A DNA stretch of 64,000 nt, taken from Patescibacteria group bacterium. Lineage in GTDB: Bacteria > Patescibacteriota > Patescibacteriia > Patescibacteriales > UBA12465. Shown piece after piece: positions 48,334 through 51,910 of the stretch. The notes beneath the pieces are model-generated. The model did not search any database and had not been told where the DNA came from. It saw only the letters and a program-made list of their open reading frames with translations. The stretch is from contig JBAZKO010000002.1 in the NCBI GenBank assembly GCA_041650775.1, positions 27,930-91,929 of the forward strand, written 5' to 3'. A program made the position numbers and the translations under genes. Position 1 is the stretch's first letter; every line of letters starts with the position of its first letter.

Positions 48334-49428
48334 TTATTTCTTAAGATCTTCTAGGGTGTAGAAACCGTCTTTAATAACGGTACTCTCTATGTTTTCTTTC
48401 GTTACCGGAACGGATTCTAACAATACCGAAGGAACATCGAATTTTCCATTATTTACGGTCTTGTCTGTAGGAATATTTTGACCCTTAGCTAAGCTGACGG
48501 CCAAATCCACTCCAGTGGAAGCTAGTTCGTAAATCGGCTTGTAGACAGTCACCGTTTGTGTTCCCTGGATAATCCTCTGTATCGCGGACAGTTCCGCGTC
48601 CTGCCCGGAAACCGGTATTTTCCCGGCTAAACCATATTCTTCCAAGGCTCTTATCGCCCCGAAAGCGGTACCGTCATTGGCGGCAACCACCGCGTCAACA
48701 GCTCCGTCGCTTTCCTCCAGATATCCTTTTAAATTCTTATAAGCGTTTTCCGGATTCCAGCCATCGGAGAATTTATCTAAAACTATTTCTATTTCGCCGC
48801 TATCTATTTTAGGTTGTAATAATTTAAATGATCCCGCCTTCAACAAAAACGCATTATTATCCGTGGCCGAGCCGCCGATATAAGCAACTTTGACTTTTTC
48901 TCCTCTGTTTATTTTATCTTCAACCGCCTGCAAAACATACTGGGCTTGATACTCGCCGACTTTTTCATTATCAAAAGACAGATAAAGGTCGACCGCGGCG
49001 TTTTTTATCAAACGATCGTAAGAAATCACTTTAATGCCGGCCTGATGAGCTTTCTCCACCACATCCGTCAAACTTTCCGCGTCATAAGCGACGATAACCA
49101 GGGCGTCCACGCCTTTGACAATCATGCTCTCTATCTGGGAAATTTGTTTTTCCGCGTTATTATTCGAAGACTGGAGATCTACTACCGCCCCTACCGCTTC
49201 GGCTCTTTTTAAAAATTCATCCCGGTCTCTCTGCCATCTTTCCTCCTGAAGCGTACCCAAAGAGAACCCGATTAAGATTTCTTTCTCCGGGCTTTTAGTA
49301 GTCGCCGGCGTTGATTCCGACCCTGACCGGTAAAAATAAAAGCTGATTATCCCGACTATCGCCAAAAGCGTGACGATAAGTCCCGTTAATAATTTTTTGT
49401 TCATATGTTTTTTAATTATTATTCCCAA
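48334..49428 (-). CDS. TM-anchored periplasmic-binding-protein (type I, XylF/sugar-binding-like), no cognate ABC permease or ATPase nearby
   Basis: 364 aa. ILIGFSLGTLQEERWQRDRDEFLKRAEAVGAVVDLQSSNNNAEKQISQIESMIVKGVDALVIVA resembles D-xylose/ribose-type SBPs. An N-terminal TM helix is present and there is no lipobox. Confidence 0.75.
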   Translation of the reverse strand: MGIIIKKHMNKKLLTGLIVTLLAIVGIISFYFYRSGSESTPATTKSPEKEILIGFSLGTLQEERWQRDRDEFLKRAEAVGAVVDLQSSNNNAEKQISQIESMIVKGVDALVIVAYDAESLTDVVEKAHQAGIKVISYDRLIKNAAVDLYLSFDNEKVGEYQAQYVLQAVEDKINRGEKVKVAYIGGSATDNNAFLLKAGSFKLLQPKIDSGEIEIVLDKFSDGWNPENAYKNLKGYLEESDGAVDAVVAANDGTAFGAIRALEEYGLAGKIPVSGQDAELSAIQRIIQGTQTVTVYKPIYELASTGVDLAVSLAKGQNIPTDKTVNNGKFDVPSVLLESVPVTKENIESTVIKDGFYTLEDLKK

Positions 49429-49444
49429 TTAAAATTCTTCACGA

Positions 49445-50530
49445 TTAACCATTCTTTTTGCCGAGGGTTTTTGTTTCTTTAGTTTCTTTTATTTCTTTCG
49501 TTTCTTCGGGTTTTTCTTTAAATTCATTTATTTCCCTTTTAAGTTCCGCTATTCTCAATTCCCGACCAACCATATATTTATTCATTCTTTCTAGCTCCAC
49601 CAATTTTTCTTCTAGGACTTTAGTTCTCTCCGCCACGGTTTGCTCCAGCCCAACTTTTAATTTTTCCAATTCCGTGGTTCTCTCTTTAACTTTCTTGCCC
49701 AGATTCTTCCTTTCCGTTTCCAGTTCGGCCGTTCTTTCCTTAACCTTCGTTTCCAATACCCCGTAAGTTTTTTTCAATTTATCGGCCATTTCGTTAAAAG
49801 ACGCCGCTAGCTGTCCCATCTCATCCTGAGATTCGATGTCGATTTTTGTCTCGAAATCTCCTTGGCGAATTTTTTCCGCGGCGCTCGTCAGAGCCTTAAT
49901 CGGTTTTATGAGCTTGGCGGTTATCGGCACAGCGATAATTATCACCAAAATAATCAGGGGAATAATTACCAGGACAATTTGAATATAAACCTCTTTTAGG
50001 CGATCAAAAAATGACTGATGCGATAAAAGATAGCGCATCGAAAAAATATGTCCCTCAGCCTGATAAATCGGAACGATGATTTCCGTCAATTCTTCTTCCT
50101 GATCACTGATATTCCTATAGACTGTTTTATCCTCCTTAATCATCTCCAGAGTTCTTTCATCTTCAATCATCCGATCATTACCCGTATATTTGCCGCTCGA
50201 AAATTCTTCGGAGTCAAATAAAATCCGGCCGTTTATCCCGATTAAGCTGATTTTAATAACATCCGGATTATTACTCAATACTTCCTGGACGGTATTTCTA
50301 AACTTACTAAAATCTTCCGGGCGGGGATGAGTATAATATTGGACATAATTATCGTAAATCGTTCTCGTCGAAAAATTGGCGAAAGTTTCGCCGTTTTTTA
50401 CTAAATCGTTTAATAGTTCCTTCCGTTCGGATAAAATAAAAACCAAAGAAAAAATAACAAAAGATACCACCATAGCCAAAATCACAAAAAAACTAATTTT
50501 AAAAGTGAGGGATTTGGCTGACATACCCAT
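49445..50530 (-). CDS. membrane signalling protein: ectodomain (Cache/PDC-like?) + HAMP + coiled coil, no kinase or other output domain
   Basis: 361 aa with two TM helices. HAMP segment LIKPIKALTSAAEKIRQGDFETKIDIESQDEMGQLAASFNEMADKL. This is followed by repeated ERT.EL heptad segments (KERTAELE, KERTTELE, AERTKVLE) and MVGRELRIAELKREI. There is no H-box and no ATPase domain. Confidence 0.7.
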   Translation of the reverse strand: MGMSAKSLTFKISFFVILAMVVSFVIFSLVFILSERKELLNDLVKNGETFANFSTRTIYDNYVQYYTHPRPEDFSKFRNTVQEVLSNNPDVIKISLIGINGRILFDSEEFSSGKYTGNDRMIEDERTLEMIKEDKTVYRNISDQEEELTEIIVPIYQAEGHIFSMRYLLSHQSFFDRLKEVYIQIVLVIIPLIILVIIIAVPITAKLIKPIKALTSAAEKIRQGDFETKIDIESQDEMGQLAASFNEMADKLKKTYGVLETKVKERTAELETERKNLGKKVKERTTELEKLKVGLEQTVAERTKVLEEKLVELERMNKYMVGRELRIAELKREINEFKEKPEETKEIKETKETKTLGKKNG

Positions 50531-50539
50531 AATGATAAA

Positions 50540-51910
50540 TTAATTACTAAGCAAAATTTCGTCGACTTTATCCGCCGCGGATTTCAAAGCGGCGGCGGCG
50601 GTCTTTTTTCCTCCCCAAGCGGATTGAATTTCTTCCATCAAGGCCGCTTTGATGTTATTACTCTCAGCGACATTAGGTTCGGCAATGGCGTATTTCATCT
50701 GGTCAACATAAACTTTGGTAAAAAAATCTCCCAGGATTTCTTTATGGCTTTCAAAATCTATCCGGCGCGAAGGAATAGCACCGATAGTGTTCGTTAATAA
50801 ATCGCCGTAACGGGTAGTGTTGGTTTCCGGCTGGACATCCGTCGTAAACCATTTTAAGAATTCCCAAGCTTCCGCTTTATGCTGACTCTTATTCATCACC
50901 CCCATGAACCAGCTATAACTAAGGGTCGCCTGATCCTTAAGCGGCGGGAAAGGCGCGACGCCGACACTGGACTCGAATTTATCGCCGAAAGCGATCTGGA
51001 AGGTAGATTTAGTCCAAGGCGGAGCGATAACCATCCCCACTTTGCCGTCTTTAAAATCAAAAAAATTACCGTTAATATCCGTAGCTCCGTTCTTAAATAA
51101 CGCCAACTCCGCCTCCAGCGCCGCCACTCCTTCTGAGCTGTTGAATAAACTCTTTTTTAAATCGGCCGACAAATATTTCCCGCCGTTGCTGAGTAGGAGA
51201 GAAAGAAAAGGGTCAACTACTTGCCAGTCTTCGCCCAAAAAAGCAATGCCGTATTGTGTGATATTTCCTTTGGCATCTTTTTTCGCCAATTTAACCGCCG
51301 CGTCTGTCAATTCCGCCCAAGTCTTGGGATAGAGGATGTTACCGCTGGCATCGACCAAACCGGCTTTTTTAAATAAATCCTTATTATATAGAAGGGCATA
51401 ATCATTTATTTCCGTGGGAATACCCCATATTTCGCCGTTAATCGTTACGCCCGCCAGAGAAACATAATTCTTAATGATATCGTCCTTGATTTCCGTCGGC
51501 GGATTATCCAGAATTCCGTTCCGGACGTAAGAAACTCCCCAGGGCGAATAAATCTGATAAATATCGGGAGATAAATCAGCATCACTTAAAACCTTTAAGG
51601 TATCGGCGTATTCGGTATATGGGATGACTTTAATATCAAATTCTATCTCCGGATGCAAGACGCTATATTCATTTAAGTACTGTCTCAATCCTTTAGACCT
51701 CAACGTTCCATCAGGATTATAGATACCGTTCCTTTGTTCTAAATTCGACCAATGAACTGCGTACGTTAGTTTTATTTTTTTGGAAGAAGTGGCCGGCGAC
51801 GGCGAACTTTTCGTTATTTCTGGTTCGACGGGACGACTATAGATAAAATACGCCCCAACCGCTACCGCTACTAAAAGGATAATGATTGCCCCGATTAGAG
51901 TTTTTCTCAT
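50540..51910 (-). CDS. TM-anchored extracellular solute-binding protein family 1 (MalE/sugar-type), orphan
   Basis: 456 aa. It has the overall family-1 SBP pattern (KLTYAVHWS..., PDIYQIYSPWG, YALLYNKDLFKKAG, GIAFLGEDWQ) and an N-terminal TM anchor. No permease or ATPase genes are in the window. Confidence 0.75.
   Translation of the reverse strand: MRKTLIGAIIILLVAVAVGAYFIYSRPVEPEITKSSPSPATSSKKIKLTYAVHWSNLEQRNGIYNPDGTLRSKGLRQYLNEYSVLHPEIEFDIKVIPYTEYADTLKVLSDADLSPDIYQIYSPWGVSYVRNGILDNPPTEIKDDIIKNYVSLAGVTINGEIWGIPTEINDYALLYNKDLFKKAGLVDASGNILYPKTWAELTDAAVKLAKKDAKGNITQYGIAFLGEDWQVVDPFLSLLLSNGGKYLSADLKKSLFNSSEGVAALEAELALFKNGATDINGNFFDFKDGKVGMVIAPPWTKSTFQIAFGDKFESSVGVAPFPPLKDQATLSYSWFMGVMNKSQHKAEAWEFLKWFTTDVQPETNTTRYGDLLTNTIGAIPSRRIDFESHKEILGDFFTKVYVDQMKYAIAEPNVAESNNIKAALMEEIQSAWGGKKTAAAALKSAADKVDEILLSN

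Follow-up and report, generated by a model that had tools for sequence, protein, structure and literature searches.

We propose that a minus-strand operon in the 64,000-nucleotide stretch of DNA analyzed here (the window) encodes two modules, each fed by a solute-binding protein (SBP), and that the transducer of the first, a membrane protein lacking a kinase domain, acts through its C-terminal tail in trans on the histidine kinase encoded downstream; we put the probability of this whole reading at about 0.55. Judged from sequence, the tail apparently marks a large class of sensor-only proteins that seems new to the literature. If the reading is right, the tail protein gives the downstream kinase a second input, one fed by an SBP.

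All seven ORFs of the operon lie where an earlier note on this DNA had placed them (Table 1), and Pfam together with an ORF check bears out its order of domains and genes: an SBP, a HAMP-only protein, another SBP, a kinase and three receivers. Intergenic gaps of 9, 34, 74, -14 and 51 nt hold as well, but the 16-nt gap is true only for a TTG start of SBP2 at 49428; with the ATG at 49404, favored by the metagenome gene caller and by the present analysis, it becomes 40 nt. The claim that two SBPs bracket a transducer has to be recast, as the region is better read as two tandem binding-protein-then-transducer pairs, one of SBP1 and the tail transducer, the other of SBP2 and the kinase. Conservation of the gene order holds in part: loci L091 and L093 repeat the SBP1-transducer-SBP2 triple of the window, and L002 does so with one more pair inserted, but several SBP1-transducer contexts have no kinase nearby. 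The dual-SBP input, singled out in the earlier note as the unusual feature, stands out less than the conserved C-terminal tail, which that note does not highlight.

Table 1. Features of the operon and its surroundings, in window coordinates.
Feature	Position	Strand	Basis or content
SBP1, CUT1/MalE-type sugar-binding protein, putative membrane anchor	50540..51910	-	Pfam SBP_bac_1, E 1.5e-31
Tail transducer, 361 aa	49445..50530	-	TM1, sCache/PDC ectodomain, TM2, HAMP, 3 S-helix repeats, C-terminal tail
Tail-transducer ectodomain, residues ~33-176	50003..50434	-	Single Cache/PDC-like alpha/beta fold, AF2 and Foldseek
Tail-transducer HAMP, residues 206-253	49772..49915	-	Pfam PF00672, E 1.8e-16
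Two additional S-helix-like ERT repeats of 18 residues, residues 262-294	49649..49747	-	Alignment of orthologs
C-terminal module, last S-helix and tail LEQTVAERTKVLEEKLVELERMNKYMVGRELRIAELKREINEFKEK, residues 295-338	49517..49648	-	Family alignment
Tail core GRELRIAELK	49538-49567	-	Within C-terminal module of tail transducer
SBP2, XylF-like sugar-binding protein, putative membrane anchor	48334..49404	-	Pfam Peripla_BP_4, 1.5e-60
Sensor histidine kinase	46287..48299	-	Pfam HAMP, PAS, HisKA, HATPase_c
Single-domain response regulator 1 (RR1)	45781..46212	-	Pfam Response_reg, 2.7e-22
Single-domain response regulator 2 (RR2), ATG start, 14-nt overlap with RR1	45390..45794	-	Response_reg, 2.3e-23
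Single-domain response regulator 3	44937..45338	-	Pfam Response_reg, 6.1e-23
Second histidine kinase, multi-TM, at cluster tail	41442..43523	-	Pfam HisKA, HATPase_c

In 10/10 independent contexts, with a transducer identity of 33-60%, the transducer gene comes immediately after an SBP_bac_1 gene, and we propose SBP1 as the ligand receptor of the tail transducer. The PDB entries closest to SBP1 are SBPs for sugars or oligosaccharides (4qrz, 3e-23; 5ci5). As the earlier note held, the two SBPs do not look like lipoproteins: each has a single hydrophobic helix at its N-terminus and, after it, a linker rich in S/T/P, and the N-terminal regions of both are devoid of Cys and therefore of a lipobox. 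Both proteins are predicted to be membrane-anchored via this helix, a cleavable signal peptide being also possible.

HAMP is the sole domain matched by Pfam in the tail transducer, with no HisKA, HATPase, MCPsignal or GGDEF, in agreement with its description as a HAMP-only membrane protein with an ectodomain. In the AF2 model (pLDDT 82.7), the ectodomain has two helices, a long N-terminal one and a short one, and a sheet of five strands; the top Foldseek match is WalK and the WalK extracellular domain (target TM 0.71-0.72 for erWalK 7dud/4ywz), and NCBIfam gives a sub-threshold HK_WalK match to the N-terminal half. The Cache/PDC annotation that the earlier note had called for is sCache-like and WalK-like. 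The ERT-repeat coiled coil reported before is confirmed, with units at residues 265-267, 283-285 and 301-303 (period of 18 residues), and is modeled as one straight helix per chain; the copy number is variable, from 1 to 3 units per ortholog (alignment A1). HAMP is also the only domain of ~35 full-length homologs, 310-350 aa long, and R323, E324 and K331 are invariant across the family. At locus L090, an ectodomain and HAMP with 51% identity to the tail transducer are fused to HisKA and HATPase. This fused kinase, with two receivers downstream and, upstream, an SBP that shares 72% identity with SBP1, is the classical three-component version of the SBP1-transducer sensor.

Proteins of the tail-transducer family close with the consensus ...ELERxNKLMVGRELKMxELKKEI, derived from 224 sequences. 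The tail module matches at least 793 cluster representatives at E<=1e-3, and its position is C-terminal. Of the 150 best-matching representatives, ~145 have the end of the match no more than ~30 aa from their C-terminus. By regex, of 106 ORFs bearing the motif in the window and the first 89 loci, counted with duplicate contigs, ~100 have it in their last ~35 aa, and of 83 such ORFs in metagenome loci, 82 have it in their last 40 aa. Among 89 class members, we found HAMP in 55, PAS in ~23 and dCache in 19, along with PocR, CHASE, MASE1, GAF, CBS and REC; none of the 25 commonest of the 41 Pfam families matched is an output domain of the HisKA, HATPase, GGDEF, EAL or MCPsignal sort. The tail has no PDB match, Pfam and NCBIfam scans place no model on this stretch, and we found no paper describing it; we came across no natural fusion joining the tail to a domain after it, which would have pointed to its partner. 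Accessory ligand binders are common upstream of tail-protein genes: SBPs from at least seven Pfam families occupy this place in ~20 of 42 cases (6-7 of 30 in a second sample) and FIST proteins in 8 of 72.

Tail genes are strongly biased toward positions upstream of kinases: in 83 of 135 tail-gene clusters, one of the next two same-strand genes downstream encodes a kinase, against 6 of 113 on the upstream side (Fisher p = 2e-22). These proportions apply to relatives of the tail transducer rather than to the whole class, as the loci were chosen via the tail motif and in order of their similarity to it. The stop and start codons of tail and kinase genes frequently overlap, and up to five tail genes stand in tandem ahead of one kinase (L086). 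These statistics, covering ~150 loci, are consistent with the suggestion that the HAMP-only protein is a co-sensor modulating the kinase. An LLNxLED motif occurs in 45 of 77 downstream kinases versus 17 of 52 control kinases (p = 0.007), a modest enrichment with controls drawn from the same loci as the test kinases; within the window, only the operon kinase has a motif of this type. Note that SBP1-transducer pairs also exist without a kinase nearby (L004, L011, L092 and the P0025 contig), and that L091 displays, in order, a CHASE4-tail protein, SBP1, the transducer, SBP2, a single receiver, PilB (MshEN/T2SSE), PilC and pilins, without any kinase. From such contexts, the partner of the transducer may be encoded elsewhere or be no kinase.

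SBP2 resembles E. coli XylF (3m9w; E 1e-95, ~52% identity) and scores 372 bits against TIGR02634 xylF, below the cutoff of 389.6; the positions that we take to contact xylose in XylF are conserved. Its gene lies directly upstream of an orthologous kinase gene in the window, L002, L076 and L173, and we propose SBP2 as the ligand receptor of the operon kinase. The latter is composed of TM, four-helix-bundle ectodomain, TM, HAMP, a coiled coil with 'MVNLLED', PAS, HisKA and HATPase_c. In the AF2 model of residues 1-260 (pLDDT 77.5), the ectodomain is all-helical; Foldseek ranks NarQ best by E-value, and the best superposition is on LytS-N of XylFII-LytS (5xsj_L; TMt 0.85, rmsd 1.8 A). The analogy with XylFII-LytS drawn earlier holds structurally for SBP2 and the kinase, which are a further case of this already known kind of sensor. 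At L173, a long-read contig shows a related kinase broken in two by an apparent frameshift.

Both SBPs appear, from the adjacency of SBP1 to the transducer and of SBP2 to the kinase in these contexts, to be dedicated sensors rather than transporter parts, as first suggested. Pfam detects no ABC permease or ATPase in 39 of the 42 non-spurious window ORFs of at least 150 aa (44 are listed, two being antisense inside the kinase gene). A six-frame scan of the window for the LSGGQ signature, by which alone ORFs 18078-22010, 22048-25347 and 27112-29646 are covered, gave no match in any plausible ABC ORF; within this scope, the window is free of ABC genes, as the earlier note had stated. Precomputed annotations of the SBP1 and SBP2 contexts also list no ABC permease or ATPase genes. 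The window is a metagenome contig of Patescibacteria (CPR), a tiny-genome lineage, as judged by close homologs bearing the name 'Patescibacteria group bacterium' and by borderline matches to CPR-type pilins.

In our scheme, the xylose-type SBP2 would dock on the four-helix-bundle ectodomain of the HAMP-PAS kinase and control the phosphorylation of the three single-domain receivers, a logic likened to XylFII-LytS, TorT-TorS and RBP/GBP-Trg. The CUT1-type SBP1 would dock on the Cache-like ectodomain of the tail transducer, which could be regarded as a kinase-less version of an SBP-dependent WalK-like kinase. The signal would run from HAMP through a long parallel coiled coil (the three ERT S-helix units) to the tail NKxMVGRELKMxELKKEI, predicted to sit at a heptad discontinuity on the membrane-distal tip and to serve as output element. 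Most likely, the tail acts in trans by touching the kinase encoded downstream; a plausible site is the S-helix/'LLNxLED' coiled coil that this kinase itself has between HAMP and PAS, and a single kinase would then integrate two sugar signals. We infer the SBP-ectodomain binding, the ligands and the tail-kinase contact, whose sign could be activating or inhibiting.

The SBP2 module is comparable to XylFII-LytS-YesN of Clostridium beijerinckii (PDB 5xsj), in which the SBP gene also adjoins the kinase gene and not ABC genes, the SBP is homologous to XylF, the kinase has a small four-helix-bundle ectodomain and HAMP follows the membrane; CuaD-CuaS-CuaR is a related system (PMC10384115). In contrast, the window has a PAS-HisKA-HATPase kinase core (WalK/PhoR-like by NCBIfam) instead of the LytS/YesM His_kinase type, single-domain rather than AraC-type receivers, no adjacent ABC operon to regulate, and a second SBP and kinase-less transducer preceding the kinase module. 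For the SBP1 module, GlnH-GlnX-PknG of Mycobacterium/Corynebacterium, the only characterized SBP-stimulated Ser/Thr-kinase system (review PMC8050422), offers a precedent for an SBP acting via an output-less transducer on a cytosolic kinase, as it too goes from an SBP to an output-less membrane transducer and a separately encoded cytoplasmic kinase. GlnX is the only output-less transducer that we noticed among the systems of this review; it differs in having two 4HB ectodomains and no HAMP, S-helix or GRELKM tail (PMC8050422), the partner is a Ser/Thr and not a histidine kinase, and the SBP belongs to family 3.

The S-helix has been described as a ~40-residue coiled coil with an ERT signature, following HAMP or PAS and almost always placed between two signaling domains (Anantharaman, Balaji and Aravind 2006, PMC1592074). 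The tail module opens with a canonical S-helix, but that of the tail transducer leads only to the conserved 20-residue tail and a stop codon, and in its family the unit occurs in 1-3 copies spaced 18 residues apart. WalK (YycG), the best structural and sub-threshold NCBIfam match, shares the TM, extracellular Cache/PAS, TM and HAMP half, whereas a cytoplasmic PAS, a DHp and a catalytic domain are all missing from the tail transducer. The regulators of WalK are the membrane proteins YycH/YycI rather than an SBP. In SBP-dependent chemoreceptors (MalE-Tar, RBP/GBP-Trg; BasB-BasT and CosB-CosT in archaea), a membrane-anchored or periplasmic SBP likewise docks on a transducer without enzymatic domain, and the conserved tip of a long coiled coil signals to a separately encoded histidine kinase (CheA). 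The tail transducer differs by its straight helix per chain (AF2) in place of the MCPsignal hairpin, which Pfam does not find, and no CheA, CheW, CheR or CheB is present among the window ORFs scanned.

The tail transducer could instead signal to another, widely conserved partner that its tip would dock; a single-domain receiver and the type IV pilus machinery are candidates, and the kinase would then be just a frequent neighbor. CheY, which binds short peptides of FliM or CheZ, is a model for receiver docking. Such a partner would suit the kinase-free SBP1-transducer pairs, the L091 cluster, which continues with one receiver followed by type IV pilus genes, and the operons of the window, L002, L022, L026 and L076, whose receivers are all output-less; in RsbK, moreover, a receiver domain binds the S-helix/kinase region (PMC4574943). 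We nevertheless consider it rather unlikely, given the strong and directional downstream kinase bias, the frequent translational coupling of tail and kinase genes, and receivers that come after the kinase and, L091 excepted, never directly after the tail gene. That both SBPs feed the kinase-less transducer, as RBP and GBP do Trg, with the kinase ectodomain sensing something else, seems improbable. The recurring triple speaks for it, as do a tail transducer preceding SBP2 wherever upstream sequence is intact (five contexts) and the SBP2 of L091 without adjacent kinase; yet an orthologous kinase directly follows SBP2 in four contexts, L173 has no tail motif in any forward frame of the locus, the preceding transducer in L076 has an unrelated ectodomain, and the kinase ectodomain is a LytS-N-like bundle, a type known to bind a XylF paralog.

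We also doubt that the SBPs are ordinary ABC-importer receptors with permease and ATPase genes elsewhere, placed here by co-regulation or in dual use like MalE/ChvE: SBP2 is very near the XylF transport protein and almost at the xylF equivalog cutoff, the closest solved relatives of SBP1 are transporter SBPs, and many sensor SBPs also serve transporters (PMC8050422), but the window scans and the annotations of related contexts, as scoped above, list no ABC genes, and the SBP-transducer adjacency is kept over deep divergence, fused-kinase variant included. Finally, the HAMP-only gene might be a decayed or truncated kinase, the pseudogene case raised in the earlier note, or a gene-calling artefact (frameshift, stop read-through). 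A fused kinase version is on record (P0017) and the L173 kinase shows an apparent frameshift; still, this reading is effectively refuted by a length and C-terminal motif conserved in ~35 orthologs and hundreds of clusters. The gene that follows encodes an SBP having a start and a putative membrane anchor of its own, and no kinase-like sequence comes after the HAMP-only gene in any frame. Our preferred reading remains a tail acting in trans on the downstream kinase.

The counterpart of RR2 in L001 is called as a gene of 134 aa. The second, multi-TM kinase possibly belongs to the same signaling network, and L002 has an orthologous kinase at its position (HisKA_7TM, weak match).

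All seven minus-strand ORFs of the operon were found as the earlier note had first described them (see the table). The intergenic distances that it gave were reproduced as well, save that the 16-nt gap ahead of SBP2 becomes 40 nt if this protein starts at the ATG at 49404 (minus strand), which is the start chosen by the metagenome gene call. That the contig belongs to a member of the Patescibacteria (CPR) is seen from close homologs carrying the name 'Patescibacteria group bacterium' and from borderline matches to CPR-type pilins. Both solute-binding proteins (SBPs) display a single N-terminal hydrophobic helix followed by an S/T/P-rich linker, with no cysteine, which bears out the claim that neither is a lipoprotein. 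A scan of the cluster for promoters and terminators returned counts close to the shuffle expectation, with no intergenic terminator found.

Positions of the operon genes and of other features of the window
Feature	Coordinates	Strand	Length and assignment
SBP1	50540-51910	-	456 aa; Pfam SBP_bac_1 / SBP_bac_8
Tail transducer	49445-50530	-	361 aa; Pfam HAMP only
Extra ERT units of tail transducer	49649-49747	-	
SBP2	48334-49428	-	364 aa; Pfam Peripla_BP_4
Operon kinase	46287-48299	-	670 aa; Pfam HAMP, PAS, HisKA, HATPase_c
Receiver 1	45781-46212	-	143 aa; Response_reg, without output domain
Receiver 2	45390-45794	-	134 aa; Response_reg, without output domain
Receiver 3	44937-45338	-	133 aa; Response_reg, without output domain
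ORF between receiver 3 and second kinase	43626-44795	-	389 aa
Four-tRNA cluster	58729-59108		Ile, Met, Phe, Pro
tRNA-Pro	59037-59108		Last of the four-tRNA cluster
ORF overlapping tRNA-Pro	59063-59524	+	153 aa; probably spurious or start mis-set
T4SS_pilin-like ORF	1978-2862	+	Borderline PF18895
T4SS_pilin-like ORF	3748-4809	+	Borderline PF18895
Pyruvate:ferredoxin oxidoreductase subunit gene	784-1965		
Pyruvate:ferredoxin oxidoreductase subunit gene	2774-3748		

In the AlphaFold2 model of the HAMP-only protein, referred to here as the tail transducer (pLDDT 82.7), TM1 extends into a long helix, ahead of a single ectodomain with a Cache/PDC-like alpha/beta fold; TM2 and a HAMP domain come next, and one unbroken helix then spans residues 237 to 338. 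The structure most resembles that of WalK and of the WalK extracellular domain (target TM 0.71-0.72), and the top NCBIfam match, sub-threshold, is the N-terminal half of WalK. Pfam and NCBIfam find HAMP only in the 361 aa, with neither a HisKA domain carrying the phospho-acceptor histidine nor an ATPase domain, and the MCPsignal hairpin (PF00015) has no Pfam match there; several homologs are annotated by JGI as methyl-accepting chemotaxis protein. A search of 5.8 billion proteins retrieved ~35 full-length homologs of 310-350 aa, also HAMP only, and on the basis of this conservation we reject both a read-through product and the truncated pseudogene that the earlier note had considered. In the alignment of these homologs, the ectodomain and HAMP are conserved and are followed by 1-3 ERT units of 18 residues and by an invariant end, ...ELERxNKLMVGRELKMxELKKEIxxLK, a few residues ahead of the stop. 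The window protein carries three units, with ERT at residues 265, 283 and 301 (an 18-residue period) and with R284 and T285 invariant in the family, and its tail motif occupies residues 322-331 of 361. As the number of units varies from one to three among orthologs (alignment A1), the length of the cytoplasmic stalk is evolutionarily adjustable while its tip is fixed. The S-helix is defined by an ERT signature at the central heptad of a ~40-residue coiled coil and is stated to sit nearly always between two signalling domains (PMC1592074); here nothing but the tail comes between the last S-helix and the stop codon, and such a terminal position is thus atypical.

Among the related loci from other genomes and metagenomes (L numbers; P numbers denote homologous proteins), an SBP_bac_1 gene lies directly upstream of the tail transducer gene in ten independent contexts (the window, L002, L004, L007/L010, L011, L090, L091, L092, L093 and the contig of P0025): SBP1 and the tail transducer form a fixed pair. 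What lies downstream of the pair varies, with Peripla_BP_4, kinase and receivers in the window and L002, ABC_sub_bind and an sCache kinase in L007, Peripla_BP_4, one receiver and type IV pilus genes in L091, and nothing signalling-related in L004, L011, L092 and the P0025 contig. The most revealing context is L090: its 627-aa protein P0017 shares the ectodomain and HAMP of the tail transducer (51% identity) and continues through a PAS-like region into HisKA and HATPase, with a fragment of an SBP (72% identity to SBP1) encoded before it and two receivers after it. The existence of this fused sensor kinase with its SBP and receivers argues that the window protein matches the sensor of a classical SBP-kinase-regulator three-component system, minus the kinase part. 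The solved structures nearest to SBP1 are CUT1 sugar and oligosaccharide binders. SBP-dependent sensing counts a modest number of characterised systems, and we regard SBP1 with the tail transducer as a novel form of it.

Two of these loci hold further genes of note. Directly upstream of the pair in L007 (7632-8540; also in L010) lies a gene for a soluble double-PAS protein that itself ends in the tail; this relative appears archaeal, and its SBP has a lipobox-like ISGC rather than a plain membrane anchor. In L002 (11027-12505), the gene just ahead of a second tail transducer (324 aa), where one would expect an SBP, encodes a protein of ~480-490 aa with no Pfam match, which may be an extracellular binding protein of a divergent or novel type.

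We then consider the tail itself. A word-index search for homologs of the last 55 residues of the tail transducer gave no matches; an exhaustive phmmer search with the same residues against 1.84 billion cluster representatives returned 793 of them at E<=1e-3. Of the best 150 of these, in proteins of 52 to 931 aa, ~145 have a match that stops no more than 30 residues short of the C-terminus. The terminal position also holds at the level of loci, with the motif lying at most ~35 aa from the C-terminus in ~100 of the 106 motif-bearing ORFs of the first 89 loci and the window, a count that takes in duplicate contigs of the close family, and at most 40 aa from it in 82 of 83 cases from 80 metagenome loci. 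From 224 sequences we derived the consensus LExxVxERTxELxxKLxELE[RK][FM]NKLMVGRELKM[IV]ELKKEIxxLK, followed by ~13 more residues, in which the hydrophobic heptad register, as we read it, shifts at VGRE. Pfam analysis of 89 tail proteins found HAMP in 55, PAS in ~23 and dCache_1 in 19, with PocR, CHASE, 4HB_MCP, MASE1, GAF, MASE3, CBS and REC among the further families; no output domain (such as HisKA, HATPase, GGDEF, EAL or MCPsignal) is among the 25 commonest of the 41 families matched. According to GTDB, the hosts span CPR lineages, DPANN and Thermoplasmata archaea, Omnitrophota, Aminicenantes, Elusimicrobia and Desulfuromonadaceae.

The tail is matched by no Pfam or NCBIfam model and by no PDB sequence even at E = 10. 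The literature searched, on output-less HAMP/SBP transducers and CPR signalling and with most subscription journals outside its coverage, and the databases hold no description of it; the precedents retrieved were CuaD, an SBP review, the S-helix paper and RsbK. A fusion of the tail to an output domain, which could serve as a 'Rosetta stone', was sought in the four proteins whose match ends at least 50 aa from the C-terminus (P0203, P0229, P0153 and P0125), yet they are without an output domain: three of them bear a duplicate of the tail at the C-terminus, P0125 has a long extension only, and none of the four gives a clue to the partner.

A kinase gene lies at most two same-strand genes downstream in 83 of 135 tail-gene clusters and upstream in 6 of 113 (Fisher p = 2e-22), and the stop codon of the tail gene frequently overlaps the start of the next gene. 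Among the kinase partners are soluble ones that open on a coiled coil and membrane-bound ones that possess sensors of their own, and up to five tail genes precede a single hybrid kinase in tandem (L086). In the downstream kinases, the helix ahead of PAS is enriched for an 'LLNxLED' motif (45/77 versus 17/52, p = 0.007); among the three kinases of the window, only the operon kinase carries such a motif, MVNLLED at residue 286. Upstream of tail genes, SBPs from seven or more Pfam families are encoded in ~20 of 42 cases and in 6-7 of 30 in a second sample, figures that carry no claim of SBP enrichment relative to kinases since the control genes upstream of ordinary membrane kinases were few (n=23) and not independent; FIST proteins occupy this place in 8 of 72. 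We propose a class defined by an S-helix plus NKxMVGRELKMxELKKEI at most ~30 aa from the C-terminus, preceded by input domains only and encoded usually upstream of a kinase gene. The window protein fits it, with its motif near the C-terminus, HAMP only, and the operon kinase two genes downstream.

Some neighbourhoods deserve separate mention. In L086 (9581-19968, a Desulfuromonadaceae MAG), the products of five consecutive genes, one of them a receiver-tail protein, all end in the GRELKM tail; a hybrid histidine kinase comes next, an arrangement that resembles the convergence of many sensors on one kinase. The FIST N plus FIST_C proteins, putative cytoplasmic ligand sensors, are encoded directly upstream of tail genes (e.g. 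L020:900-1976), in parallel with the SBP association. A gene for a stand-alone 5'-3' exonuclease (5_3_exonuc_N plus 5_3_exonuc) is directly upstream of the tail gene in 16 of 72 loci (L022:37-978, L026:8419-9363 and 14 others; alignments A3 and A5); L022 and L026 continue with the transducer, a soluble kinase, a pair of receivers and an ORF that ends in a zinc finger and is Fpg/MutM-like by eye. This exonuclease neighbour probably reflects CPR lineage synteny, or may link signalling with DNA repair.

SBP2 aligns with E. coli XylF (3m9w) at E 1e-95 and ~52% identity and falls just short of the xylF equivalog (372 bits for a cutoff of 389.6 bits). The alignment shows D90/R91, D135/N137, N196/D197, D222 and K242 of XylF, which we take to be the xylose-contacting residues, all conserved. 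In the window, L002, L076 and L173, where no ABC genes appear, the gene immediately ahead of the operon kinase or its ortholog encodes SBP2 or an ortholog of it. The kinase ectodomain is predicted to be a four-helix bundle (AF2 pLDDT 77.5, from a shallow, 3-sequence alignment). By Foldseek its best E-value is to NarQ and its closest superposition is on the LytS sensor domain of XylFII-LytS (5xsj_L; target TM 0.85, rmsd 1.8 A), a match with an E-value of only 1.4e-2 in a fold class, small helical bundles, that is promiscuous. The analogy with XylFII-LytS drawn in the earlier note thus seems to hold for SBP2 and the kinase: gene adjacency supports it, as may the superposition. The kinase core is PAS-HisKA-HATPase_c rather than LytS/YesM-type, and the receivers are without output domain, with no AraC-type (YesN) regulator. 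We consider SBP2 with the kinase as a further example of a known SBP-kinase type. In L173 (8001-9952), the kinase ortholog is split into ORFs of 326 and 324 aa and the upstream sensor gene is full of frame changes, most likely an indel error of long-read assembly and not biology.

Taken together, we favour, with a probability of about 0.55, two tandem SBP-then-transducer modules in which the tail tip would provide a second input in trans to the downstream kinase. SBP2 with a xylose-like sugar would act on the kinase ectodomain; SBP1 with its own sugar would act on the Cache ectodomain of the tail transducer, whose HAMP would relay the signal through the S-helix stalk to the conserved tip, and from there to the kinase. 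The sugars sensed here would probably be xylose and another plant- or host-derived sugar. This reading builds on predicted folds and on the observed pairings, tail class and operon bias, from which we infer all protein-protein contacts, the ligands and the sign of the effect, activating or inhibitory. Its closest functional precedent is GlnH-GlnX-PknG, where an SBP signals through an output-less membrane transducer to a cytosolic kinase (PMC8050422); chemoreceptors with CheA offer a looser analogy.

Other wirings are conceivable. L091 and the contexts without a kinase suggest that the tail may dock on another partner, for instance a receiver or the pilus machinery; the strong bias of tail genes towards a downstream kinase is the observation to be set beside them. 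The tail transducer might also be fed by both SBPs, where the conserved adjacencies pair SBP1 with the transducer and SBP2 with the kinase. Finally, the SBPs might also, or only, serve unlinked ABC importers. The window was said to contain no ABC permease or ATPase genes, and Pfam indeed finds none in 39 of its 42 non-spurious ORFs of at least 150 aa; in the remaining three, covered by a six-frame search for the LSGGQ signature only, no match fell in a plausible ABC ORF. No cognate permease or ATPase gene for SBP1 or SBP2 was found in the 64-kb window or in any of the related loci.

Beyond this operon, a reading that we hold to be nearly as likely as not is that the S-helix plus GRELKMxELKKEI tail is an unrecognised, widespread output or docking module, which would plug free-standing sensors into a separate histidine kinase via a coiled coil. 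With SBP, FIST or their own Cache, PAS or CHASE domains as input, such proteins would form many-to-one 'split' two-component sensors, especially in CPR and DPANN, and one kinase would here integrate two sugar-binding proteins. The class is large and unannotated, with inputs, no recognisable output, a common 40-residue C-terminal module and genes placed shortly before those of kinases. Docking of the tail on kinases, if real, would explain the role of hundreds of proteins called 'HAMP domain-containing', 'PAS domain' or, mistakenly, 'methyl-accepting chemotaxis', and would offer a natural route to multi-input integration by one kinase, a portable connector for sensor engineering and a handle on sensing by uncultivated CPR and DPANN organisms. 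The operon itself, with no ABC transporter gene nearby, points to a sensory use of membrane-anchored sugar-binding proteins in Patescibacteria, whose genomes are reduced. To a specialist it may be moderately surprising; the tail class raises the testable question of how hundreds of output-less sensors are connected.

Several minor observations accompany these results. In L091 (8748-15404), the genes after SBP1, transducer and SBP2 encode one receiver, a PilB-type ATPase (with an MshEN domain), PilC and pilin-like proteins, with no kinase between; this hints at a possible control of type IV pili by the system in some CPR bacteria. The 389-aa ORF that follows the third receiver has no match in Pfam, NCBIfam or PDB and, by eye only, a G-x-G-like 'VGSGTT' stretch; L002 has a SAM methyltransferase in this position, with no detectable homology (BLASTP E = 1.2). 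Methylation of an S-helix by an operon-encoded methyltransferase has a precedent in RsbM/RsbK (PMC4574943). The ORF as an RsbM-like enzyme acting on the S-helix was dropped as evidence, being non-homologous to the L002 enzyme and without domain match, and is kept as a lead only. Elsewhere in the window, a 153-aa ORF overlaps the tRNA-Pro that closes the tRNA cluster. Two ORFs with borderline T4SS_pilin matches (26.0 bits, just under the 26.6-bit cutoff, and 28.1 bits, just over) interleave with pyruvate:ferredoxin oxidoreductase subunit genes, an odd arrangement in which one of the two overlaps the next gene by ~90 nt.
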